Source of the DNA: Chloroflexota bacterium
GTDB taxonomy: Bacteria > Chloroflexota > Limnocylindria > Limnocylindrales > CSP1-4
Assembly: GCA_041691435.1 (NCBI GenBank)
Contig: JBEPUS010000002.1
Location: 1-44,934 of the forward strand
Length of the DNA: 44,934 nucleotides
Reading direction: 5' to 3'
The notes beneath the pieces were generated by a model, which was not told the DNA's origin, did no database searches, and saw only the letters and a program-made list of their open reading frames with translations. The position numbers and the translations under genes were made by a program. Shown piece by piece: positions 9,762 through 40,706 of this stretch (its first letter is position 1; every line of letters begins with the position of its first letter).

Positions 9762-10624
9762 ACGCCGAGATCACCAGCAGCCGGGACGAATCCCTCGAGG
9801 GCCGGCGCGCGGGCGCCGTCTCGGGCGGCTTCCAGGCGACCCTCGCCCGCGAGGTCAATGCCACGTTTGCCATCGCCTGGCGGGAGGTCCTGCGGGCCAT
9901 CAAGAGCCCCGCGTCGCTGGCCTTCACGATCATCTTCCCGGTGTTGTTCATTGGCGTCCTGGGCGGCAGCATCAGCCAGAACCTGGGCAATGCCCTGCCG
10001 TTCGCGTACCTGCCATTCATGCTCATCGGGATGATGGCCAACTCGCTCTACCAGGGCACGATCGTCGGCGTAACCAACCTGGTGGAGGAGCGCGAGAACG
10101 ACTTCACGGCCGAGCTCTTCGTTGCCCCGATCTCGCGATACGCAGTCCTGCTTGGCAAGATGCTCGGCTCGGGCGTCGCTTCCCTCAGCTCAATCGTCGG
10201 GATCTTCGCGATGATCGTGATCATGCAGATCCCGATGAACGTGGGTGACCTGCTGCGGGTGCTTGCCCTGGCCCCGGTCCTGGCCCTGGCGGGCGGTGCC
10301 CTGGGGATCTTCTTCATCGGCTTCGTCCACGACCCGAAGGTCGCCGCGATCGGCGTGCCGCTGCTGATCTTTCCCCAGATGTTCGTGTCCGGTGCGCTGA
10401 TCCCGGTCGCCGCCTCGACCGGCCTGCTGGGCTTCCTGGCGAAGGTCATCCCGATGACCTACAGCATCGACCTGGCCCGCAACATCTTCTACTGGGGCAA
10501 GCCCGAGTACAGCGCCGCGGTCCTCAACAGCCCGATCCTCGACCTCACGGTGACCGTAGGCCTGTTCCTCGCCTTCACGATCGTGGGCACCTTCTTCTTC
10601 GTCCGCTCCGACCGAAACCGCTGA
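9758..10624 (+). CDS. ABC-2 type transporter permease
   Basis: 288-aa protein with 6 predicted TM helices. ATGA overlap with the ATPase gene. Confidence 0.85.
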   Translation: MNAEITSSRDESLEGRRAGAVSGGFQATLAREVNATFAIAWREVLRAIKSPASLAFTIIFPVLFIGVLGGSISQNLGNALPFAYLPFMLIGMMANSLYQGTIVGVTNLVEERENDFTAELFVAPISRYAVLLGKMLGSGVASLSSIVGIFAMIVIMQIPMNVGDLLRVLALAPVLALAGGALGIFFIGFVHDPKVAAIGVPLLIFPQMFVSGALIPVAASTGLLGFLAKVIPMTYSIDLARNIFYWGKPEYSAAVLNSPILDLTVTVGLFLAFTIVGTFFFVRSDRNR

Positions 10625-10654
10625 TGGGCCTGGTCGTGGGCGGCGGAGGTCCTG

Positions 10655-28973: not shown

Positions 28974-29342
28974 ATGGTGGGTATCTCGTCGCAGGCGCCG
29001 GGCTCCTATTTTGTCGGTCCGAAGCGCGCGCCGGAACGGAACTTCCCCTTGGCTCGAACCCCTTTCTCGCCGCCTGAGGCGAACATCGTCGTGTGCAGCG
29101 ACGGCTACTTCGACGTCTATTCGACCGATGCCCGGACGAATGGCGACAAGCCCGCCTACCGCGGCCGGCTGGCCGAGCTCGGCCCAGGCATTCGCGGTGG
29201 GGACGATCGCCTGGCCGTCCGGCCGGGATCGGTTGCCCTCAATGAAGCGGTGATCGCCTGGTCAAGGGCCCACGGCGCGGCGGCCGTCCGCGGCGAGCTC
29301 GGCGGCGGCCGGGATGGCAACGAGGTCGAGCCGGCGGCCTAG
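28974..29342 (+). CDS. Hypothetical protein
   Basis: High third-position GC (about 80% by hand count) in this frame only. No family recognised. Start uncertain (TTG 28950 or ATG 28974). Its stop shares the palindrome CTAG with the convergent gene. Confidence 0.4.
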   Translation: MVGISSQAPGSYFVGPKRAPERNFPLARTPFSPPEANIVVCSDGYFDVYSTDARTNGDKPAYRGRLAELGPGIRGGDDRLAVRPGSVALNEAVIAWSRAHGAAAVRGELGGGRDGNEVEPAA

Positions 29343-29806
29343 CCGCCTGATTCGAGCAACCGGCCGTTCGCGAGGCGCAGGCGGAGGCTGATCCGGCGCT
29401 GCGTCTCGAAACGGTCCCGGATCAGTGTTTCGGCGACCTCGGGCTGATCGGCGTGATAGAGCCGGGCGCCCTCGGCTGCGTCCGCCTGGGCGGCCGGCTG
29501 GTCGTCGCCGATCTCCGCCCGACCCTCGATCGACACCCATTGGCCGCCGTCCTCGACGGCAATGCTGACCCGGGGGTCGCGGCGCGCGTTGCGCACCCAG
29601 GCCCGGCTCTCTGCGCCGTTGACCACGAGGGTTTCTTCGTCGAGGACGAACCAGACGACCGCCTGGAGCGGGCTCCCATCGGCCCGGATCGTGGCCATCG
29701 TGGCGAACCGGAGCTCAGAGGCCAGGAATCGGCGGACCTCCTCGCTCGATTCCGCGCCTGATCCGGGGTGGGTCGAGGAGGCCATTGGTCGATGGTCGCA
29801 GGCCAT
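29339..29806 (-). CDS. Pyridoxamine 5'-phosphate oxidase family / PPOX-class F420-dependent protein
   Basis: ..LRFATMATIRADGSPLQAVVWFVLDEETLVVNG.. RAWVRNARRDPRVSIAV.. is typical of the split-barrel family. Confidence 0.75.
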   Translation of the reverse strand: MACDHRPMASSTHPGSGAESSEEVRRFLASELRFATMATIRADGSPLQAVVWFVLDEETLVVNGAESRAWVRNARRDPRVSIAVEDGGQWVSIEGRAEIGDDQPAAQADAAEGARLYHADQPEVAETLIRDRFETQRRISLRLRLANGRLLESGG

Positions 29807-30680: not shown

Positions 30681-31439
30681 TCAGTGCATGCCCCGCCCGC
30701 CGGCGACGATCAGCAGCTCGCCGGTGATGAACGCCGCGTCGGCCGAGGCCAGGAAGACGGCCGAAGCGGCGATGTCGTCGGGCGTGCCCCAGCGGGCGAG
30801 GGCCGTCTCGTCGAGGATCCGCTGCTGGGTGGCCGGGTCGATCTCCTCGACCATGTCCGTCCGGATCCAGCCGGGGCAGATCGCATTGACCGTGATGTAC
30901 GGGCCGAATGCCAGGGCCATCGCCTTGGTCAGGCCGTTCATGCCGGCCTTGGATACGACGTACTCGGTGAACTTCATCGCCGAAGGGTGGTAGAGGCCCG
31001 AGTTCGACGAGATGTTGACGATGGTGCCGCCCTGCTGCTTCATCATGATCGGGGCGACGGCTTTCGAGCACAGATAGGCGCCCTTCAGGTTGATGTCGAT
31101 GGTCCGGTCCCAGTCGTCCTCGGTCGTCTCCAGGACGCTCTTGTTGATCATCACCCCGGCGTCGTTCACGAGGATGTCGACCCGCCCGTAGTGGTCGAGC
31201 GTGGCCTGGACGAGGCGCTCGACGTCGGCCCGGTTGGAGACGTCGGCTGCCACAGCGAACGCGTCGCCGCCGGACTGCCTGATCTCCTCGACCACCTCGG
31301 CCGCGAGGTCGGCATTGGCGACGTAGTTGACGACAACCCGGGCGCCCTCTGCTGCGTAGCGCATGGCGATCGCCCGGCCGATTCCCCGGGACGCCCCGGT
31401 GACGATCGCGATCTTGCCGGCCAGGTGCTGCTCAGACAT
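30681..31439 (-). CDS. SDR-family oxidoreductase (FabG-like)
   Basis: Starts MSEQHLAGKIAIVTGASRGIGRA, with NDAG and YVVSK. AAGGAGAG upstream of ATG 31439. Confidence 0.85.
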   Translation of the reverse strand: MSEQHLAGKIAIVTGASRGIGRAIAMRYAAEGARVVVNYVANADLAAEVVEEIRQSGGDAFAVAADVSNRADVERLVQATLDHYGRVDILVNDAGVMINKSVLETTEDDWDRTIDINLKGAYLCSKAVAPIMMKQQGGTIVNISSNSGLYHPSAMKFTEYVVSKAGMNGLTKAMALAFGPYITVNAICPGWIRTDMVEEIDPATQQRILDETALARWGTPDDIAASAVFLASADAAFITGELLIVAGGRGMH

Positions 31440-31539
31440 CGAACTCTCTCCTTCGGAACCGTGGTGGGCGGGATGGCTCAGCTCGGCCGGCCGTATCAAC
31501 GAGGGTCCCAGGGAGATCGAAGATCAACGTGCGGACCAT
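31432..31539 (-). pseudogene. 5' stub of a HAD-superfamily hydrolase gene (35 codons)
   Basis: Reads GGGAGAG-N5-ATG, then MVRTLIFDLPGTLVDT (HAD motif I, DxDGTLVD, with the second Asp replaced by Pro), then unrelated sequence. Its stop TGA lies within codons 2-3 of the downstream SDR gene. Confidence 0.35.
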
Positions 31540-31628
31540 CTCAGCTCTCCCAGGTCCGGCCGATGCGCCCGAGCAGGTCGACCATAGGTCAGCCCTTGCT
31601 GGCCCTCGATCATCAGCCCGAAGCGCAC
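31524..31628 (-). pseudogene. 5' stub of a luciferase-like (LLM, F420-dependent type) oxidoreductase gene (34 codons)
   Basis: GTG 31628 lies 15 nt after the DUF4432 stop. It reads VRFGLMIEGQQGLTY, an N-terminus I associate with LLM-class F420-dependent oxidoreductases, then unrelated sequence. Its stop falls 13 nt after the HAD-stub ATG. Confidence 0.4.
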
Positions 31629-31643
31629 CGGCCGATTCCCGCC

Positions 31644-32753
31644 TCAGCCCGGGCCGGTGGGGATCCGGCCGACTCGCCCCGCGAAGGCGTCGATCGCGGG
31701 CGCACCGTCGAGCGCGCCAATCTCCAGGTCGTATGTGCGCACCTGGCCGCCCTCGAGAAAGAGCAGCTCCCCGCGCTTGCGTGCGTCCCAGCGCCCGGCG
31801 TCCCGGTTCGTGCCTGGCTCCATGGCCATCGCGTACGTGTCCTCGCCCATCATCTTCCAGACCGTGTGGTGGGGGAGCTGCTCGATCCGGAAGACCTGGT
31901 AGACGCCCAGGCCGAGCTCGCGGTTGACGACGGCGACCGGGACCGTGCCTGCGGGCTCGGCGATCAGCTCGTTCTCGAAGCAGGTCTCGGTGAAGCCCGC
32001 GAGCGGCTCGGTGAGGGTCGCGTAGCCCTCGGTCGTCACGGGGTAGTCGGTGGTCGTCGCGAGCGTCGGGATCAGCAGCTCGGAGCCGCCGGCCACGACC
32101 GGCCAACCGGCATTGCAGTGATACAGGAGCATGTGGCTCGTCCGATGATGGCCGACGTTCTCGACCTCGTCATGGATCGTGAACCGGCTCTCCCCGACCC
32201 TGGCCTCGATCCGCCGGCGCAGGACGAGGTGCTCGCCGAAGACGGCCGATTGGAGGACCTCGCCCTCGGCCCACAGGATGCATTCGTCGCCATCCCAGCG
32301 CTCGCCATAGCCGACGAGGCGGGCCGGCAGGCCGCCGACCCGACCGTGCAGCGAGAACGACTGGGTCTCGCGCAGGTGCGGCTGGTCGAAATCGAGGGCA
32401 CTGTCCTCGCCGCCCAGCAGGGTGTGGTCAAGGCCACAGGTGACCACCATCCCGCCACCCCAGTAGCGGAACCAGCCGAGCGGATCGTTCTCGTAGTACC
32501 ACGGCCCAACGGTTCCGGCATTGGCGATCCAGGCCAGCGGCCGGCCGCCCATCTCGCAGCGACCAACGTCGAACGTCCGGTCAACGACGACGTCGAAGCT
32601 GAACCCGGTCCCGGTCCGGAACTCGACCAGTCGGACGCCGCGGCCGGCCCCATCGCCGAGGGTGACCAGGCGTACGCCGGCCACTTGGTCGAGCCGGCCG
32701 ACCCGCCGGAGCAGCTCGGTCCTGGAGAACGTCTGGCCCCAGAGCGTGGTCAT
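31644..32753 (-). CDS. Aldose 1-epimerase-like protein (DUF4432 family)
   Basis: Starts MTTLWGQTFSRTELLRRVGRLDQVAGVRLVTLGDGAGRGVRLVEFRTGTGFSFDVVVDR.. and reads as a mutarotase-like fold. Start at ATG 32753. Confidence 0.78.
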   Translation of the reverse strand: MTTLWGQTFSRTELLRRVGRLDQVAGVRLVTLGDGAGRGVRLVEFRTGTGFSFDVVVDRTFDVGRCEMGGRPLAWIANAGTVGPWYYENDPLGWFRYWGGGMVVTCGLDHTLLGGEDSALDFDQPHLRETQSFSLHGRVGGLPARLVGYGERWDGDECILWAEGEVLQSAVFGEHLVLRRRIEARVGESRFTIHDEVENVGHHRTSHMLLYHCNAGWPVVAGGSELLIPTLATTTDYPVTTEGYATLTEPLAGFTETCFENELIAEPAGTVPVAVVNRELGLGVYQVFRIEQLPHHTVWKMMGEDTYAMAMEPGTNRDAGRWDARKRGELLFLEGGQVRTYDLEIGALDGAPAIDAFAGRVGRIPTGPG

Positions 32754-32779
32754 GGCGCTGCCTTTCGAACGGTGGGACA

Positions 32780-32847
32780 AGCTCACCCGGCGGCCTCCAC
32801 CGGGTGAGCTGGCAAGGTGCTGATGTCAGCCGGGTCGGCCCCGGCTG
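32780..32847 (-). terminator. Two strong hairpins between the permease gene and the DUF4432 gene
   Basis: cagccggg-tcggc-cccggctg (32827-32847), starting 3 nt after the permease stop, then agctcacccgg-N9-ccgggtgagct (32780-32810, an 11-bp perfect stem). No clear U-tract. Confidence 0.5.
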
Positions 32848-32850
32848 CAA

Positions 32851-34305
32851 CTACGCTTCGCCGATTGATTGGCCCGCCTTGAGGAGCCAGTCCTCGTTGC
32901 CCCGTGCGCGCAGGTAGAGGAGGAGGGCGATGCCGATGATCAGCCAGACCCCGTCGATGATCGGGGCGAAGACGTACGGCTGTGCCGGCAGCGTCGGGAA
33001 GAACGAGGCATAGACCGCGTAGATCAGGACCGCCGAGCCAATCAGCGGAAAGATCACGTGAAGCACGATGTTGAACTCAGCCTTGTGCTCGCCCCGGTAG
33101 AACATGAAGACGGCCAGGTTAGCCATCAAGTACACGACGGTCACGCCCAGGACCAGGATCAGGCCGTCCACGAAGAAGAACGACACGTCCGCGCCGAAGG
33201 CGAAGCCGGGGATCAGGCCGATCGCGAGCGACAGGGCCATCTGGAGCAGGATCGCGTTGACCGGGGTCTTGTAGGTGTCGTGGGTCTTGGCCAGCGCCTT
33301 CGGGAACGACCCGCTGCGGGCCATGCTGTACCACATCCGGGTGCTCACGTTGGCCGTCGACAGTCCATTGCCGATCACGCTGTTGAGGAACGCGATCAGG
33401 ATCAGGATCCAGCCCGCGCCCCACAGCCGACGAGCCAGGTCGAGAGCCGGCAGTTCCTTGTCGTTGATGATGTCCTGGACGTTGTTCGGCCCGAAGCCCG
33501 AGATCACGCCCCAGAAGACAATCACCAGGTAGACCCCGATGATCACGATCGAGAGGTAGACCGACAGCGGCACGTTGCGCTTCGGGTCGGTCGTTTCCTC
33601 GCCCAGCGGCGCCGCCGCCTCCCAGCCAGTCAGGCCCTGAACCGAGAAGACGACGGCCAGCGCGAACGACGAGAAGCCGAGCCACTTGCCGGGATCGAAG
33701 ACGGCCACCGTCACGCCGCCGGGTCCGGGGCTGATGAAGCCCGAGATCGCCAGCGCCAGCACGATCAGCATCTCCAGCCCGCCGGTGATGACCAGCGCCT
33801 TGGCCGACAGCTTCAGCCCGCGGAACTGCATGTAGGCGATCAATGGGGCAAAGATCACCACGCTGAGCGCCCACAGGAAGGGGATGTTGATGTTGTACTG
33901 CGAGTTCAACTCATTCTGGAGGATGAACCCGAAGAAGGCATATACGGGGCCCGACGCGATCGGCGAGTACAGGATGAACATCCACGACGTCAGGAAGCCG
34001 GCCCGCGGGCTGACCGCCCGGCTGATGTAGGTGTAGTAGCCGCCCGCTGAGGGCAGATGCTTCGAGAGCTGCACCAGCGTGCTGCCCAGGAGCAGCACGA
34101 TGATGAAGCCGGCGACATAGGCCAGCGGCGCCGTGATCCCGGCCAGCGAGATCACGAACTGGGTGAAGAACAGGGCGGCGATGGCCGGCGAGATATGGGT
34201 GATCGCCTGCATCGTCGCCCCGACGAGGCCGATCTGGTCGCGCTGAAGGTCGGTCTTCAGTGGTGCCGCCCCGGCGGCGGGTGCAGGTTGACTGTCTAGT
34301 GCCAC
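32851..34305 (-). CDS. APC-family amino acid/polyamine permease
   Basis: 484 aa with about 12 TM helices, including LPSAGGYYTYISRAV. GTG start 6 nt after GAGGAG. Confidence 0.9.
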   Translation of the reverse strand: MALDSQPAPAAGAAPLKTDLQRDQIGLVGATMQAITHISPAIAALFFTQFVISLAGITAPLAYVAGFIIVLLLGSTLVQLSKHLPSAGGYYTYISRAVSPRAGFLTSWMFILYSPIASGPVYAFFGFILQNELNSQYNINIPFLWALSVVIFAPLIAYMQFRGLKLSAKALVITGGLEMLIVLALAISGFISPGPGGVTVAVFDPGKWLGFSSFALAVVFSVQGLTGWEAAAPLGEETTDPKRNVPLSVYLSIVIIGVYLVIVFWGVISGFGPNNVQDIINDKELPALDLARRLWGAGWILILIAFLNSVIGNGLSTANVSTRMWYSMARSGSFPKALAKTHDTYKTPVNAILLQMALSLAIGLIPGFAFGADVSFFFVDGLILVLGVTVVYLMANLAVFMFYRGEHKAEFNIVLHVIFPLIGSAVLIYAVYASFFPTLPAQPYVFAPIIDGVWLIIGIALLLYLRARGNEDWLLKAGQSIGEA

Positions 34306-34373
34306 AAGTCACTCCTCGATGCGCTTGGTGGTCGGCTCAGCCCGCGTTGCAGCGTCGTCGGTGGCACCCTCCC

Positions 34374-35345
34374 CTAGAAGATGGCGATGGGATTCCAGGG
34401 CGAGCCGGTCCCGCCTGGCAGGCGCAGCGGCAGACCCACGACCATGAACTCGAAGCGGCGCTCCTCCGCGCAGGCCCGGGCGAGGTCCTCGAACTGCAGG
34501 CTGTCCGCAGTGAACATGCCCATGGCCACGATCTGCAGCGGATGGATCGGGTAGCTGATCCCATCGACGCAGCTGGGGACCGCCTCGCCGTCGCCATCGG
34601 GCAGGAAGCCAGCGATCCGCCGCTCATGCATCCATGGAATCGTGTCCACGTGGAGGCCCGCCTTGCCCTCGCCGGCGGGACCGTTGTCCCATGGCCCGAG
34701 CTCGAGGCGGCGCCGGTGATGGCCGGTGCGGTAGACGAAGAAGTCACCCTCGCCGATGCGGACACCCTGGGCCACCTCGCAGGCCTCGAGCTCGGCCCGG
34801 GTCACGGCCTCGCCGGGCTCCAGCCACTTGACGCCCCGGAAGCGGGGCAGGTCGAACAGGACGCCCCGGCCGACGACGCCCTGGGCGGCGACGCCCGCGA
34901 TGTCGAGGGTCGTCGCGCCCTGCGAGGTGAGGACCTCGAGGGCCGGCTTGCCGTTATAGGTCAGGCCGTTGTACGAGATGTGGCAGAGCGCGTCGCAATG
35001 CGAGTGGCAATCGCCGTGGAAGGCCATGCCCAGGAAGTCGAGCCCGAAGCGCAGACCGCCCGAGCCGATGTCGATGTCGTGGCCCTGCACGACGTAGTGG
35101 ATCGCCGGGCTGGGGTTGTCCGGCCCGGCAAGCGTGTTGATCGGGATGGACAACGAGACGCGCCGGCCGCTGCGGACGAGGCCGGCGGCCGCCCGGACGC
35201 GCTCGGGGGTCACGTAGTTGAGCGTCCCGAGCTGGTCGTCGGGACCCCATTTGCCCCAGTTCTTGACCGACTCGAAGAGCGCTTCGAACTCGACCACCGA
35301 CACCCGCGGCCCGCTGCTCTGGCTGGTCGCCGGGGCCGCGCTCAT
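34374..35345 (-). CDS. Putative cyclase family protein (kynurenine formamidase-like metal hydrolase)
   Basis: KWGPDDQLGTLNY and the metal motif FHGDCHSHCDALCH, a variant of HxGTHxDAPxH. Confidence 0.82.
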   Translation of the reverse strand: MSAAPATSQSSGPRVSVVEFEALFESVKNWGKWGPDDQLGTLNYVTPERVRAAAGLVRSGRRVSLSIPINTLAGPDNPSPAIHYVVQGHDIDIGSGGLRFGLDFLGMAFHGDCHSHCDALCHISYNGLTYNGKPALEVLTSQGATTLDIAGVAAQGVVGRGVLFDLPRFRGVKWLEPGEAVTRAELEACEVAQGVRIGEGDFFVYRTGHHRRRLELGPWDNGPAGEGKAGLHVDTIPWMHERRIAGFLPDGDGEAVPSCVDGISYPIHPLQIVAMGMFTADSLQFEDLARACAEERRFEFMVVGLPLRLPGGTGSPWNPIAIF

Positions 35346-35443
35346 CGGACGGCGCTCGGGACGAGCGGCTCGCCCAGGACATTCGGGACGATCCCCCGAC
35401 CGGCGCCGGTGACCACGACACCCTTGCTCTCGAAGCGCTTCAC
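35342..35443 (-). pseudogene. 5' stub of an SDR gene (33 codons) ending on the cyclase-family start codon
   Basis: Reads AGGAGAG-N6-GTG, then VKRFESKGVVVTGAGRGI (SDR Rossmann TGxxxGI), then unrelated sequence. Its stop TGA overlaps the downstream ATG (ATGA). Confidence 0.5.
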
Positions 35444-35471
35444 GTCGAACTCTCCTGCTTGAGCGTCCGGG

Positions 35472-36650
35472 TCAGTGAGTCAGCAGGCCGTGGTGTCCCG
35501 GCCCACGTGGGATCACCGGCCAGATGTCGACGACCAGCCCATCCTCCACGACGTGGTAGGCGTCGTACCAGTTGACGGTGGACGGCGAGTAGCCCGGCAC
35601 CAGCTCCACGATGTCGCCGAACTTGAGCGACGAGCCGCCTGTCGCGTCGAAGATCCCGTGCTCCTCGTCGAAGCGGAAGACGGGCATCGGATGCCCCTCG
35701 ATCGTGGCCAACTCGCCGGCACCGATCGACTTGTTGCCGGCATCGATGATCACCCGGTCGGGCCGCCGACTGATCACTGTTGCCTGGACGGTGAGCGAAT
35801 GCTCGAAGCCGCCAACCATTGCGCCGTGGAAGTTGTCCATCACGGCGTAGGTGCCGGCCTGGATCTCGGTAATGCCCGGGAAGGCCGCCGTCCAGTCCCA
35901 GGTGGCGGTCCCGCCGGCCGAGCGGATTGGACTGGGCAGCCCGTGGTGCTCGAACGAGTCGGCCACCTCGACGAGAAAGCCCATCGCCGCGCGCTGCTTG
36001 ACCAGGCGCTCATCGTGGTCCGGCGTGATGGAGCAATGCCCCTCGTAGCCAGTTACGCCCAGCAACTCGAGGCCAGGGCTGGCGGCGACCCGGCGGGCAA
36101 GCAGCAGGGCTTCTTCCAGGCTATCGGCACCACAGCGATCCATGCCGGTGTCGACCTCGATGAGGACGCCGAGGCGGCTGCCGGCGGCCTGGGCCGCGGC
36201 CGAGAGCTGCTCGACGCTGCTGGGATCGTCGACGGCGACGATGATCTCGGCGTCCCGGGCCAGCTCGGCCACGGCCTGGATCCTGGCCGGGCCGGCGATC
36301 GTGTTCACCACCAGGATGTGATTGAAGCCCGCCCTGACAAGGACGATCGCTTCCCAGACGGTGGCGACCGACAGGCCGATCGCCCCGGCGTCAACCTGGA
36401 GGCGAGCCAGGTCGGGGCTCTTGTGGACCTTGATGTGCGGTCGGATCTCGGCCGGCAGCTCCCGGATCCGGCTGGCCATCTTGCTGATGTTGCGCTTCGC
36501 GGCGGGCAGGTCCAGGACGAGGGCGGGCGTGATGAGCTCGGACCGCGGCCGGCCGATCGCCCCGCCGTATTCGCGGCGCACGCGCTCGTACCCCTCTGCG
36601 AGGATCGCCGCCCCGTCTGGCCTGCCCAGGGTCTGGACGATGTCGCTCAT
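35472..36650 (-). CDS. DSD1-family PLP enzyme (D-threonine aldolase / D-serine or D-3-hydroxyaspartate dehydratase-like; alanine racemase N-terminal fold)
   Basis: Starts MSDIVQTLG.. and contains ITPALVLDL and IRPHIKVHKSP (PLP lysine motif RPHxKxHK). Start at ATG 36650, sharing one nt with the VOC stop (TGATG). The track ORF start at 37223 is an extension through the VOC gene. Confidence 0.85.
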   Translation of the reverse strand: MSDIVQTLGRPDGAAILAEGYERVRREYGGAIGRPRSELITPALVLDLPAAKRNISKMASRIRELPAEIRPHIKVHKSPDLARLQVDAGAIGLSVATVWEAIVLVRAGFNHILVVNTIAGPARIQAVAELARDAEIIVAVDDPSSVEQLSAAAQAAGSRLGVLIEVDTGMDRCGADSLEEALLLARRVAASPGLELLGVTGYEGHCSITPDHDERLVKQRAAMGFLVEVADSFEHHGLPSPIRSAGGTATWDWTAAFPGITEIQAGTYAVMDNFHGAMVGGFEHSLTVQATVISRRPDRVIIDAGNKSIGAGELATIEGHPMPVFRFDEEHGIFDATGGSSLKFGDIVELVPGYSPSTVNWYDAYHVVEDGLVVDIWPVIPRGPGHHGLLTH

Positions 36651-37153
36651 CAGTCCGGCGGATAGACGCGGCTGGGGGTCAGGTCGATCGCGTGGCCGCT
36701 GCCGGACTCGAGGATGAACTTGAGCATCGGCTCGGTGTCGAGGTAGTAGAACTCGATCGTCTCGCCGATCCGCCCACCCATCAGGACCTTGGCGCCGCGG
36801 GCCTCCCAGTCCTTCTTGAACTCGTCCGAATCGACCTGCGAATGCATCATGCAGGCGATGTGCTGGACGCCCTCGCCGTGCTCCTCGAGGAACTCCTTGT
36901 AGATGCTCGGGCCGTCGAGCGGCTGGACCAGCTCGAAGACCAGGCCCGGCTGGACCTCGCATTCCGCACCGAGCATGGAGAAGGCGACCTCCTCGCCGCG
37001 CAGGTGGGTGTGATGGAGCTTCGGCGGGACATGCTCGTAGACGTTCCACGGCCCCCAGCCAAGGGTCTCGTTGAACATCTTCATCGAGGCATCCAGGTCG
37101 CGCACGACCATCGCCACCTGCGAGATCCGGGTCGGGCCTGCGTGCTGCGTCAT
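36650..37153 (-). CDS. VOC (glyoxalase/bleomycin resistance/dioxygenase) family protein
   Basis: Starts MTQHAGPTRISQVAMVVRDLDASMKMFNETLGW and contains ..GVQHIAC... AGGAGGAG upstream of ATG 37153. Confidence 0.8.
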   Translation of the reverse strand: MTQHAGPTRISQVAMVVRDLDASMKMFNETLGWGPWNVYEHVPPKLHHTHLRGEEVAFSMLGAECEVQPGLVFELVQPLDGPSIYKEFLEEHGEGVQHIACMMHSQVDSDEFKKDWEARGAKVLMGGRIGETIEFYYLDTEPMLKFILESGSGHAIDLTPSRVYPPD

Positions 37154-37259
37154 CGCCGTCTCCTCCTGGGAAATGGGGCAGGTCGCTGCCGGTGTATGGG
37201 AAAGACTGTGCAACCCGTGTCAAGACCTTGCACGTCCGTCGAGCAGTCCGAGACCGGGC

Positions 37260-38072
37260 TCATGGCGTGGCCTCGACCCCGGCTTCACCGTCGAGGGGAG
37301 CGACGATCACCTGGATGCCCCGCTCGCGGAGTGCCCCGATCGTCTCCGGGTCGCTGCCGGCCGAGGTCACCACATGGGTCAGGACGTCGATCGGAGCAAC
37401 GCGGACGAGCGAGTCATGGCCAAACTTGGAGTGGTCGGCCAGCAGGATCACATCGGTCGCCGCGGCGATCATCGCCCGCTTGACTGCGACCTCGTCGAAG
37501 TTCGGGTAGGTCAGCCCGCCCTCGATGGAGACGCTATTGATCGCGAGGAAGGTCTGGTCCACCCGCAGCTCGCCGAGGGTGGCGACGGCCAGCTCGCCGA
37601 CGGCGCCGAACGTCGTCGGCCGGACGATTCCCCCGGTCAGCACGACCGTGATATCCCGGCTCTCCATCAGCTCGATGGCGTTCGTGACGGCATTGGTGAC
37701 CACGATCAGGTCACGCTTCGATTTGAGGGCGCGCACGAAATGGACGGCCGTGGAGCCGGAGTCCACGATGATCGTGCTGCCATCGCTGACCAGCTCGGCC
37801 GCGGCCTGGGCGATCGCGACTTTCTCGGCCTCGTGCTCGCGCAGCCGGAGCGAGAAGCTCGACTCGGCCCGGGTCGGGGCCATTGCGCCGCCGTGGGCGC
37901 GACTCAGGACCCCCAGGTCGGCGAGCTGGGCCAGGTCGCGCCGGATCGTCTCGTCGGTGACCCCGAAGAGATCCATCAACTCGCTGGCGCGCACGCTGCC
38001 ACGGTCACGGACGAGCTCGACGATCCGCCGCCGCCGCTCCGGAGCCACCAACCCGATCGGCCGCCTGGGCAT
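37260..38072 (-). CDS. DeoR-family transcriptional regulator
   Basis: RRRRIVELVRDRGSVRASELMDLFGVTDETIRRDLAQLADLGVLSRAHGGA plus a DeoR C-terminal sugar-phosphate sensor domain. Start at ATG 38072. Confidence 0.85.
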   Translation of the reverse strand: MPRRPIGLVAPERRRRIVELVRDRGSVRASELMDLFGVTDETIRRDLAQLADLGVLSRAHGGAMAPTRAESSFSLRLREHEAEKVAIAQAAAELVSDGSTIIVDSGSTAVHFVRALKSKRDLIVVTNAVTNAIELMESRDITVVLTGGIVRPTTFGAVGELAVATLGELRVDQTFLAINSVSIEGGLTYPNFDEVAVKRAMIAAATDVILLADHSKFGHDSLVRVAPIDVLTHVVTSAGSDPETIGALRERGIQVIVAPLDGEAGVEATP

Positions 38073-38102
38073 GCCCTCGCTCACGCTGTGCCCGAACTGA
38101 TG

Positions 38103-38215
38103 CCAACGAAACCCACGATCAACGCCAACTCCCATTGACGGCCCGTGGCGCGAGCCGACCTCCCGCTCGCCCCAGCATCATACGACCACCTGTCCAGCGC
38201 CGTGGGTTTGGTTGG
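38103..38215. promoter_or_regulatory. Long-range inverted repeat (15-nt arms, 14/15) in the DeoR / dhaK divergent region
   Basis: ccaacgaaacccacg (38103-38117) against the reverse complement of cgtgggtttggttgg (38201-38215). Centre-to-centre distance 98 bp. Confidence 0.6.
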
Positions 38216-38305
38216 AGTCCAGCGCTCCCGAACGTGCGTCTGACGGGGTAGACTTCCCCACGCCCAGTGTGGCGACCGGTGGTTCGTGTGGGCGGAGGTC
38301 ATCCG

Positions 38306-39304: not shown

Positions 39305-39939
39305 GCCGGACGTTGCGCGACGCGATCCTGGCGGCCTGCGCTGACCTCGAAGCCGCCCGCGAGGCACTTTGCCTGCTCGACGCCACCAGCGGCGACGGCG
39401 ACCACGGGGTGACCATGGCCATCGCCGCCCGCGGGGTCCGGGCCAAGCTGGCGCAGTTGCCTGCCGACGAGCCTGAGGGCGTCGTCCGGGCGGCAGCGCT
39501 GGGTATGGCCGGAGCGGGCGGCACGATCGGCGCGGTCTACGCCCGGGGCCTGCTGGCGGTCGCAGCCCGGCTCCACGAAGCCGAGTCCGAGATGCCGACG
39601 GTCGCCTTGCTGGCCTCTGCCGTCTATCGAGCGGCCATTGCGACGGGCGGACTCGGCGCCCAGCCCGGCGACAAGACGATCCTCGATGCGCTGCAGCCAC
39701 TGGCCGCGGCGCTGGCCGACGCAGCCGCCGCCAACCTGTCCATGCCCGAGACGCTGGCGCGGGCCGACGCAGCGGCCCGTCAGGGAGCCGATGCCACGGC
39801 CGACATGGTTGCCCGAGTGGGCCGATCGGCGCGCTTCGCGGAACGGAGCCGCGGCACGATCGATCCCGGCGCCGCGTCGCTGGCGATCATCGTCCATGCC
39901 CTGGTCACGAGTGCCCTGCGGCCGGCCGGGCCCGATTGA
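39301..39939 (+). CDS. dhaL: Dihydroxyacetone-kinase-type kinase, nucleotide-binding subunit DhaL (DAK2 domain)
   Basis: LDATSGDGDHGVTM motif. ATGA overlap with dhaK. Confidence 0.85.
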   Translation: MSRTLRDAILAACADLEAAREALCLLDATSGDGDHGVTMAIAARGVRAKLAQLPADEPEGVVRAAALGMAGAGGTIGAVYARGLLAVAARLHEAESEMPTVALLASAVYRAAIATGGLGAQPGDKTILDALQPLAAALADAAAANLSMPETLARADAAARQGADATADMVARVGRSARFAERSRGTIDPGAASLAIIVHALVTSALRPAGPD

Positions 39940-40706
39940 TGCGACCGCTCATCGGCACGAGCTGGAAGATGAACATGACCGCGACCGAGGCAGGCCGCTG
40001 GTTCGATGCCTTCGTGCCCCTCGCCCGGGGGCTGCTGGAGGTCGACCTGTTCGTCCTGCCCTCGTTCACATCGCTGGAGCTCGCCCGAGAGCGACTCGCG
40101 GGGACCCCGCTGGCCTGGGGTGCCCAGGACGTGAGTCCGTTCGACGATGGGCCGCACACCGGCGACGTCTCGGCGGCAATGCTCGTCGACCTGGGCTGCC
40201 GCTTCGTGGCGGTCGGGCACGCCGAGCGGCGTCGCGACCACGGCGAGACGCCGGCTGTGATCAATGCCAAGATCAGCGCGACCCTGGGCGCGGGCATGGA
40301 CGTGATCCTGTGCACCGGCGAGCTGCGCAGGGCACCCGACGAGGTGGCCGTCCAGGCAGTGATCGCCGATCTCGAGAGTTGCCTCGCGGGCATTGCCGGC
40401 TCAGAGCTGGCCCGGCTGGTCGTCGCCTATGAGCCGCTCTGGGCAATCGGGGCGGGCAATCGCCCGGCGGCGCCGGAGCATGTCGGCCAGATCCACCGGT
40501 CGATCGGCTCGTGGCTGGCGAACCGCACTGCGGGAGCCCGGCCCCGAATCCTGTACGGCGGCAGTGTTGACCAGGACAGCGCGCCGCGCCTGCTCGCCGA
40601 GCCGGGGGTCGATGGCCTGTTCGTCGGTCGCAACGGCCTTGACCCGGTGGCCTTCGCGGCGATCGCGGCCGCTGCCCCGGCGCCCTCGCCGGCGGCCCTC
40701 CGATGA
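39939..40706 (+). CDS. Triose-phosphate-isomerase-family isomerase (non-canonical motifs)
   Basis: Starts MRPLIGTSWKMN, with GHAERR, AYEPLWAIGAG and YGGSV. Start at ATG 39939 (TGATG with the dhaL stop), or possibly TTG 39936. Confidence 0.85.
   Translation: MRPLIGTSWKMNMTATEAGRWFDAFVPLARGLLEVDLFVLPSFTSLELARERLAGTPLAWGAQDVSPFDDGPHTGDVSAAMLVDLGCRFVAVGHAERRRDHGETPAVINAKISATLGAGMDVILCTGELRRAPDEVAVQAVIADLESCLAGIAGSELARLVVAYEPLWAIGAGNRPAAPEHVGQIHRSIGSWLANRTAGARPRILYGGSVDQDSAPRLLAEPGVDGLFVGRNGLDPVAFAAIAAAAPAPSPAALR

Follow-up and report, generated by a model that had tools for sequence, protein, structure and literature searches.

On balance, we favour a reading in which three short open reading frames (ORFs) from a Chloroflexota bacterium are ordinary remnants of deleted genes, of which only one likely still acts as a coupling leader while the other two are likely neutral debris. 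The ORFs lie on the minus strand of a catabolic gene cluster in the window, the 44,934-nucleotide stretch analysed here (assembly GCA_041691435.1, contig JBEPUS010000002.1, positions 1 to 44,934). The probable leader is the scar of an SDR gene, which ends on the start codon of an intact cyclase-family gene; the other two are scars of a luciferase-like monooxygenase (LLM) gene and a HAD gene, located upstream of an intact SDR gene, SDR_A. The ORFs and the two intact genes that follow them are the following.

35443-35342, minus strand: SDR scar ORF (SDR stub), 33 codons, from sequence reading
34374-35345, minus strand: cyclase-family gene, intact, 323 amino acids (aa), Pfam PF04199
31628-31524, minus strand: LLM scar ORF, 34 codons, from sequence reading
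31539-31432, minus strand: HAD scar ORF, 35 codons, from sequence reading
30681-31439, minus strand: SDR_A, intact SDR gene (252 aa) that follows the LLM and HAD scars, from Pfam

Three deletion scars in one catabolic cluster

The window was compared with 160 related loci, labelled L001 and so on, in an all-against-all screen. Its nearest relatives are metagenome-assembled genomes of Limnocylindria (Chloroflexota). Homology, junctions, reading frames and the strengths of Shine-Dalgarno (SD) sequences were read directly from these sequences, and an independent assembly was available for the junctions. Using tblastn, blastn and junction reading, we found intact orthologues of all three remnants at syntenic positions in L001, L002, L060 and L082. 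In these relatives, an SDR of 268 aa follows the D-serine-dehydratase-like gene (DSD), and an LLM of 318 aa and then a HAD of ~224 aa directly follow the DUF4432 gene. Pfam assigned the orthologues to SDR (adh_short), Bac_luciferase and HAD and returned no match for the stub peptides alone, which are too short. The intact syntenic orthologues therefore imply that all three stubs come from deletions, as a preliminary description of the sequence had proposed, and they are the relics of three separate junctions. All three have homology to intact syntenic genes and have lost functional parts, and can thus be classified as pseudogene fragments; none contains a full catalytic domain, only N-terminal motifs (TGAGRGI for the SDR and DLPGT for the HAD). 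The name "5' stub" given to all of them is correct for the HAD scar, but the SDR scar joins 18 N-terminal to 15 C-terminal codons and the LLM scar 15 to 14.

The SDR scar and the cyclase-family gene

The SDR scar consists of three recognizable elements.

35450..35459, minus strand: SD region (AGCAGGAGAG) of the SDR scar ORF, by direct reading, with an anti-SD ΔG of −7.7
35390..35443, minus strand: 5' part, the first 18 codons of the SDR gene, including GVVVTGAGRGI, from identity to L001
35342..35389, minus strand: 3' part, the last 15 codons (VPNVLGEPLVPSAVR) and the native TGA, from identity to L001

The scar starts with GTG, with an AGGAG SD sequence 8 nt upstream. Its N-terminus is identical to the SDR of L001 in 17 of 18 residues (16 of 18 if the GTG start of L001 is read as V), and 14 of the 15 C-terminal residues match as well. 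At the junction, codon 18 (ATC) directly abuts GTC CCG AAT, the beginning of the last 15 codons. The reading frame is preserved, and 235 of the 268 codons, including the catalytic region, were removed. The native TGA of the scar overlaps the ATG of the cyclase-family gene (35345) as ATGA (−4). Since the identical ATGA junction is found in L010 and L042, where the SDR and cyclase genes are both intact, this overlap is ancestral.

The cyclase-family gene is intact, has a coding-type G+C content at third codon positions (GC3) of 0.93 and is 78-82% identical to full-length homologues. We computed the anti-SD duplex free energy (ΔG) for the region upstream of each start, using random 22-mers as the background.

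SDR stub start: −7.7
Cyclase start: −2.2
Permease start: −8.8
DUF4432 start: −9.3
LLM stub start: −7.5
HAD stub start: −7.3
SDR_A start: −9.3
SDR_B start: −10.8
PNPOx-like gene start: −8.2
Random 22-mers, median: −3.7

The cyclase-family gene is the sole SD-less gene of the operon, with a ΔG weaker than the background median, and the other genes and stubs range from −7 to −11. In the related loci L011, L033 and L068, where the SDR gene was lost without leaving a stub, AGGAGG precedes the cyclase gene in every case. In L006, a 31-codon SD-bearing ORF that resembles N- and C-terminal relics of the SDR ends in ATGA on an SD-less cyclase start. An SD-less start placed on an ATGA overlap points to the SDR scar as the element that probably works as a coupling leader for the cyclase-family gene. 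The two form a co-directional stop/start overlap of the type expected for a coupled pair. The SDR scar is also the only one of the three with the layout of a Keio-type in-frame scar, as the LLM scar is out of frame and the HAD scar has no 3' part. Ribosomes terminating on the SDR scar would reinitiate on the cyclase-family gene by termination-reinitiation, and the scar might be regarded as a natural counterpart of the engineered Keio in-frame scar peptide. From the sequence we infer the translation of the scar, the dependence of the cyclase-family gene on coupling and any selective filter acting on the deletion.

The two neighbouring enzymes show a reciprocal pattern of loss. The window lacks the SDR and retains the cyclase, the sister clade retains the SDR and lacks the cyclase, and L081 has neither. 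This pattern suggests that the cluster can dispense with either enzyme, SDR or cyclase, and that both are accessory to it.

The LLM and HAD scars

The LLM scar retains both ends of its gene.

31584..31628, minus strand: 5' part, the first 15 codons (V/MRFGLMIEGQQGLTY), from identity to L001
31541..31585, minus strand: 3' remnant in its native frame (MVDLLGR...*), with the native TGA at 31543-31541, from by-eye alignment to L001, L002 and L060

All 15 residues of the 5' part are the same as in L001, apart from the start codon, which is GTG here and ATG in the relatives. The only SD-like element is GAGG, located 13 nt upstream with poor spacing. The first 15 and the last 14 codons meet at a shared ATG microhomology one base out of frame, so that 29 of the 318 codons are kept but not in one frame. 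As a consequence of the frame, the scar ORF bypasses the native TGA and stops at a TGA that arises from a TTG codon inside the HAD stub, at which the relatives carry TTC. This stop is located 13 nt beyond the HAD-scar ATG, giving an overlap of 16 nt, beyond the typical coupling range. A contig of a second, unrelated sequencing run, X2 (contig 10, 157 nt, only ~3x depth), matches window positions 31585-31741 exactly and begins right at the LLM junction; its start could be the point where intact and deleted alleles diverge in the X2 sample.

The HAD scar runs into the leader of the following gene.

31492..31539, minus strand: 5' part, 16 codons (MVRTLIFDLPGTLVDT), the orthologue being HAD by Pfam
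31440..31491, minus strand: leader of SDR_A, 52 nt, crossed by the HAD scar ORF, from sequence comparison
31444-31454, minus strand: SD of SDR_A (GAAGGAGAGAG), with an anti-SD ΔG of −9.3

This scar has an ATG start and a GGGAG SD sequence and keeps 16 of ~224 codons. It is more decayed than the other two, with an extra codon and three non-synonymous changes, including the loss of the second Asp of motif I, now Pro (DLPGT for DLDGT). Its TGA starts 5 nt beyond the A in the ATG of SDR_A (ATGTCTGA), and the resulting 8-nt overlap is within the distance of coupled pairs. The TCTGAG that ends the HAD frame occurs in the window only and is absent from the other SDR_A orthologues compared. In L001 and L060, SDR_A is the first gene of a separate unit, and ~3.9 kb of extra sequence separates the LLM start from SDR_A. 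This sequence includes the rest of the LLM and HAD genes, an aldo/keto reductase gene, an unassigned ORF and, on the opposite strand, a SnoaL-like gene.

The preliminary description had claimed that each remnant keeps an element resembling a ribosome-binding site plus a start codon, and that each terminates on or over the next start codon. All three ORFs do exist with these elements at the positions listed above, although the SD-like GAGG of the LLM scar is poorly spaced; the stop positions are real, too, but the start following the LLM stub belongs to the dead HAD stub. The further proposal that the stubs deliver ribosomes to the next gene as leader ORFs is plausible for the SDR scar, with its SD-less neighbour on ATGA, and unsupported for the other two. 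Nothing indicates a function of these two: the LLM scar is in the wrong frame and leads only to a dead stub, and the gene on which the HAD scar ends carries a strong SD itself. Both are most likely neutral debris, and that they stop close to the following start codons would be the outcome of which frame the junction happened to fall in.

Stop positions compared with chance

Whether the stops are enriched at downstream starts depends on what is taken as fixed. In a conditional estimate, we kept the position of each junction and its present flanks and let only the frame be random. The three frames of the SDR junction lead to the ATGA stop, to a fusion with the cyclase, or to a 155-codon out-of-frame ORF across the cyclase start. 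At the LLM junction, the native frame would end 4 nt ahead of the HAD ATG and the observed one ends at +13, the third being the frame of HAD itself. The frames of the HAD junction stop at +5 (observed), fuse to SDR_A, or stop ~45 nt upstream. Given these flanks, the joint probability that all three stops fall near the next start is ~0.07-0.11.

In a generic estimate based on 646 SD-supported starts in the related loci, a ribosome was assumed to enter out of frame 60 nt upstream. Termination between −6 and +13 occurred in 33% in frame 1 (22% at ATGA/GTGA) and in 12% in frame 2, where the stops peak at +5. The mean of the three frames is ~0.15 per stub and ~0.003 for three, a figure that ignores the ancestral overlap. 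Taking both estimates together, the stop positions do not clearly exceed chance. For the same 646 starts, out-of-frame stops cluster at +1 (ATGA/GTGA, 22% of starts) and at +5 (ATGNNTGA, 7%); the +5 peak may be partly phylogenetic, as orthologous genes were counted repeatedly.

Deletions in related loci

The unfiltered all-against-all screen for insertions and deletions gave 667 clusters, most of which reflect rearrangements of the cluster among distant lineages. Events were retained if their flanks aligned well and a single ORF contained both breakpoints, and were then checked by eye. A further 80 loci around the enolase-family gene contributed one usable event, the genomes being too divergent, and the events in L038/L153 and L020 were set aside as ambiguous.

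Several retained events resemble the SDR scar. L012 (13 + 4 codons) and L014/L093 (6 + 4 codons) contain in-frame scars of a 2-hydroxyacid dehydrogenase gene that overlap their neighbours at both ends, by GTGA and ATGA, and L026 has an in-frame SDR scar of 4 + 13 codons. A 40-codon SDR scar that ends in ATGA on the next gene is common to L134, L135, L025, L121 and L122, and L075 (Sphingopyxis) has an in-frame relic of 4 codons. Other outcomes were also found: an out-of-frame deletion in L127 and an upstream gene fused in frame to a 3' remnant in L029/L030. Further losses in the cluster, which has shed genes repeatedly, do not fit the rule of the preliminary description. L009 retains only the last 67 SDR codons. 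In L081, an SDR stub of 33 N-terminal codons is fused to a cyclase remnant, with a stop ~115 nt before the permease start, and its LLM gene was lost along with the 5' end. Cyclase loss in L001, L002 and L060 left ORFs of 7-19 codons, whose start lies on the ATGA where the SDR gene stops and whose end falls 70-120 nt ahead of the permease start. In L145 (~2075-2095), compared with L121 (2818-2940), the 40-codon scar was itself deleted precisely between two GCGA repeats, which places the GGAGGA SD of the scar 4 nt before the downstream ATG.

Near-complete deletions that kept the start codon and have a close following gene are in frame in seven of nine cases (binomial P 0.008 against 1/3, and 0.045 on the strictest subset), and partial deletions in the relatives in two of eight, about the neutral rate. 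The deletion classes were set after looking at the data, and some events are related to each other. A neutral in-frame rate of 1/3 has to be rejected as too low, given that repeated k-mers are often in phase. Among 600 analysed of the 645 high-GC genes found in the 160 loci, 46% (k = 3) to 71% (k = 8) of the repeated k-mer pairs are in phase, and 37-46% of end-to-end pairs. As short coding repeats are strongly in phase, microhomology-mediated deletions in high-GC genomes should be biased toward in-frame outcomes even without selection.

Retention of the start codon is not a general feature: about seven of ~18 near-complete deletions in the relatives lost it. In the start-less cases that were checked (L016, L029/L030 and L145), the downstream gene either has its own SD or joins the upstream gene directly. 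The proposed general rule, that such deletions are tolerated preferentially when ribosomes still reach the next start codon, finds only suggestive agreement in the seven of nine in-frame cases, but is undercut by the phase bias of microhomology; as a rule for deletion tolerance it is plausible but unproven. A more specific version is that, in operons chained by overlaps, selection might filter deletions so that an in-frame mini-ORF, made of the native start and the last codons, remains as a coupling adaptor for an SD-less gene until a later deletion brings in an SD, as in L145. Such "natural Keio scars" might then form a recurrent class in high-GC bacteria, a suggestion that we regard as tentative and rather doubtful at present.

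The 40-codon scar family indicates what might be maintained in such an element. Across the five genomes, 25 of its 120 columns vary, compared with 12 of 200 third codon positions of the adjacent cyclase; the scar thus evolves faster than these positions. First, second and third codon positions are all affected, and the peptide is consequently not conserved. The ORF has acquired no indel or stop in the five genomes and the ATGA is kept, which is suggestive and not significant. The lack of a conserved peptide in this analogous family counts against placing the SDR scar in the leader-peptide or attenuator class, and neither a terminator nor an Rfam family was found at the locus. An explanation by a structured RNA or an attenuator was rejected on the same two negative results.

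Three further observations were made in the related loci. Clusters of the Streptosporangiaceae type (L142 ~2395-2435, L131, L019 and L101) have a conserved 8-codon mini-ORF (ATGATCCTGCCCACGGTCCATGCCTGA) in the gap between the permease and DUF4432 genes, which shares ATGA with the permease stop and ATGCCTGA with the start of DUF4432. It resembles a native relay ORF working on two sides and may be the scar of an older deletion. In L025 (~10285-10320), a short tandem duplication of a stop/start overlap (GGGGCGCGATGACGGACC) resulted in two in-frame MTDR starts downstream. In L060, L013, L053, L071 and L074 (MFD-series, long-read-derived), tblastn matches are split in otherwise intact genes; these are probably frameshift errors, able to mimic stubs in automated screens.

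Weighing the alternatives

The proposed history begins with separate and fairly recent deletions, involving a few bases of microhomology at most, which would have trimmed a sugar or amino-acid-type catabolic operon of a Limnocylindria-like bacterium. What remains would be what deletions can leave without harming the expression signals of the neighbours. Several observations weigh against a selected role even for the SDR scar. It differs from L001 by 13 synonymous and 2 non-synonymous codon differences, which marks it as young, with constraint not yet demonstrated. The 5' part of the LLM scar differs by 5 synonymous codon differences and the start codon, and the three SDR and LLM parts together by 18 synonymous and 3 non-synonymous differences, the LLM 3' remnant not being scored. 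From these mostly synonymous differences, the SDR and LLM deletions are judged to be recent relative to the split from L001, and the persistence of the ORFs needs no selection. The claim that selection is required for stub persistence is not supported, and the SDR overlap is simply an ancestral junction kept in frame. The neutral chance of the in-frame outcome is at least 1/3, and 0.4-0.5 with phase-biased microhomology; with a null of ~0.45-0.5, the seven-of-nine excess among the relatives becomes borderline (P roughly 0.05-0.09, by hand calculation). The cyclase gene was lost in the sister lineage (L001, L002, L060 and L081) and is dispensable there, and selection on its expression in the window is our assumption. 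The L145 locus demonstrates that such a scar is fully removable once an SD lands beside the downstream ATG. A search for RNA sequencing runs containing the region found none.

Many of these points would equally fit a history in which all three stubs are neutral debris, with the cyclase-family gene either translated independently, for instance by SD-independent initiation, or on its way to being lost. The youth of the stubs, an in-frame outcome that is a 1/3 to 1/2 event, the loss of the cyclase in the sister clade and the about neutral two of eight partial deletions are all as expected from it. It has more difficulty with an intact cyclase gene of coding-type composition that is 78-82% identical to full-length homologues, and with the coincidence that the only SD-less gene of the operon sits exactly on an ATGA overlap. 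Moreover, stub presence tracks SD absence across five relatives, and in-frame scars recur upstream of overlapped genes in independent lineages (L012, L014, L026 and the L134 family; seven of nine). We consider this alternative unlikely, though it deserves to be taken seriously.

Less probable still, and improbable in our view, is that all three stubs were selected as leader ORFs, with ribosomes passing from DUF4432 through the LLM and HAD stubs to SDR_A and from the SDR stub to the cyclase. Such a relay would either carry ribosomes to the next start or keep the 205-nt gap translated, avoiding Rho-type polarity. With the stubs translated, no untranslated gap of more than 15 nt would exist between 31644 and 31439, and no terminator is predicted. 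The promoter-like region upstream of SDR_A, present in L001 and L060, is gone, so SDR_A depends on read-through transcription. Both the TTC-to-TTG change that makes the LLM-ending TGA and the TCTGAG that ends the HAD frame are in keeping with a relay, as is the generic three-stop estimate of ~0.003. Against the relay stands the conditional chance of 0.07-0.11. The LLM scar, out of frame and with a GTG start and a poorly spaced SD, would feed only a dead stub, and SDR_A has a strong SD (ΔG −9.3) of its own. Nor do the relatives follow the pattern: L081 lost the same LLM gene including its 5' end, and the cyclase or SDR stubs of L001, L002, L060 and L081 stop 70-120 nt short of the permease start.

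Finally, artefacts of assembly or binning, such as chimeric joins or collapsed reads, are rejected as a negligible prospect despite the metagenomic source and the short X2 contig that starts exactly at the LLM junction (31585), because two Logan contigs assembled independently from the source run X1 (a metagenome of freshwater sediment) cover 31398-34045 and 34204-35600 at ~10x, span all three junctions and match without differences, and the junctions lie within collinear, well-conserved sequence.

If scars of deletions are retained as coupling adaptors, this would account for some of the short intergenic ORFs that lack annotation, give annotators a rule separating functional mini-ORFs from debris, and show that translational coupling constrains the loss of genes from operons. 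The SDR scar is also a natural test of the minimal length of an upstream ORF that still supports reinitiation. If the scars are just debris, the locus represents ordinary turnover of accessory genes in a catabolic cluster.

Gene order around the scars

The remaining genes of the minus-strand cluster are as follows.

37260-38135, minus strand: DeoR regulator, from Pfam
36650-37213, minus strand: glyoxalase-family gene, from Pfam
35472 to ~36668, minus strand: D-serine-dehydratase-like gene (DSD), from Pfam
32851-34305, minus strand: amino-acid permease, from Pfam
31644-32786, minus strand: DUF4432 gene, with its stop 15 nt upstream of the LLM scar start, Pfam PF14486
29836-30651, minus strand: SDR_B, a second SDR gene, from Pfam
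29339-29806, minus strand: PNPOx-like gene, from Pfam

An operon on the opposite strand, starting at 38267, encodes dihydroxyacetone-kinase, triose-phosphate-isomerase and RpiB. The window has a G+C content of 69%. The DUF4432 protein shares 84-85% identity with those of L001, L002 and L060; for the enolase-family protein, identity to the genome containing L060 is 92%. In a search for closer relatives with the same scars, scans of genomes and metagenomes with the DUF4432 protein gave no match above ~85% amino-acid identity. No terminator-like site was predicted in the gaps between the minus-strand genes of the region, and no Rfam family matched in the gaps of the locus. In the absence of a terminator, the two adjacent operons of the preliminary description may be a single one. 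Its list of ATGA/GTGA overlaps (4577, 7838, 9758, 11229, 12965, 24257, 39301, 40703 and 41188) was found in full in the sequence, and coupling-type overlaps are indeed common in the window. Two tight junctions can be added to the list, a TGATG (−1) overlap at 10624 (10621-10626) and a TTGATG at 39936-39939 (39936-39941).

Comparison with known systems

The remnants recall the decaying pseudogenes in the intergenic spacers of Buchnera, which were left by deletional erosion (PMC3164680). In both, the bulk of a gene has been deleted and remnants persist between retained genes whose expression signals are preserved. The host of the window is, however, a free-living, high-GC soil or sediment bacterium rather than a reduced symbiont. 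Clean large deletions (one each for the SDR and LLM genes, and ~3 kb at the HAD junction) took the place of many small lesions, and all the remnants have kept a start codon and an ORF.

A review puts forward that short ORFs located upstream may "deliver" ribosomes to the gene coupled to them (PMC12548453, citing Shell et al. 2015). The peptide of the SDR scar is probably likewise irrelevant, its sole role would be to bring a ribosome to the next start, but its origin can be traced to a deleted enzyme gene, a source of short ORFs on which the papers searched are silent.

The Keio collection offers the closest engineered parallel. Its 34-residue in-frame scar, composed of the start codon, the scar and the last C-terminal codons, was designed to preserve coupling; downstream genes often drop if coupling is disturbed, and the 34 residues are often insufficient to restore the downstream protein (PMC8547470). 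The SDR scar, at 33 codons, is almost the same in size and layout: it has the native start and the 3' codons in frame and keeps the native stop/start junction, with the difference that it arose naturally and its in-frame state could be luck. Our literature search found no paper on natural deletion scars as coupling adaptors, although making the engineered counterpart is routine.

Coupling by termination-reinitiation at ATGA and TGATG overlaps has been described by Huber et al. 2019, 2023 (PMC6728339, PMC10666635). It requires overlapping or very closely spaced genes, and the upstream gene's last 15 nt are enough (PMC10666635). The SDR scar and the cyclase-family gene resemble such pairs in their ATGA, in the SD-less downstream gene and in the 15 native 3' codons, more than the 15 nt needed; they differ in that the upstream partner is a 33-codon scar instead of a gene and that the coupling is a prediction from sequence. 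Thus, the objects themselves are known as gene remnants and the mechanism would be standard termination-reinitiation, and we propose as the new element a scar ORF that has replaced the gene from which it was derived.

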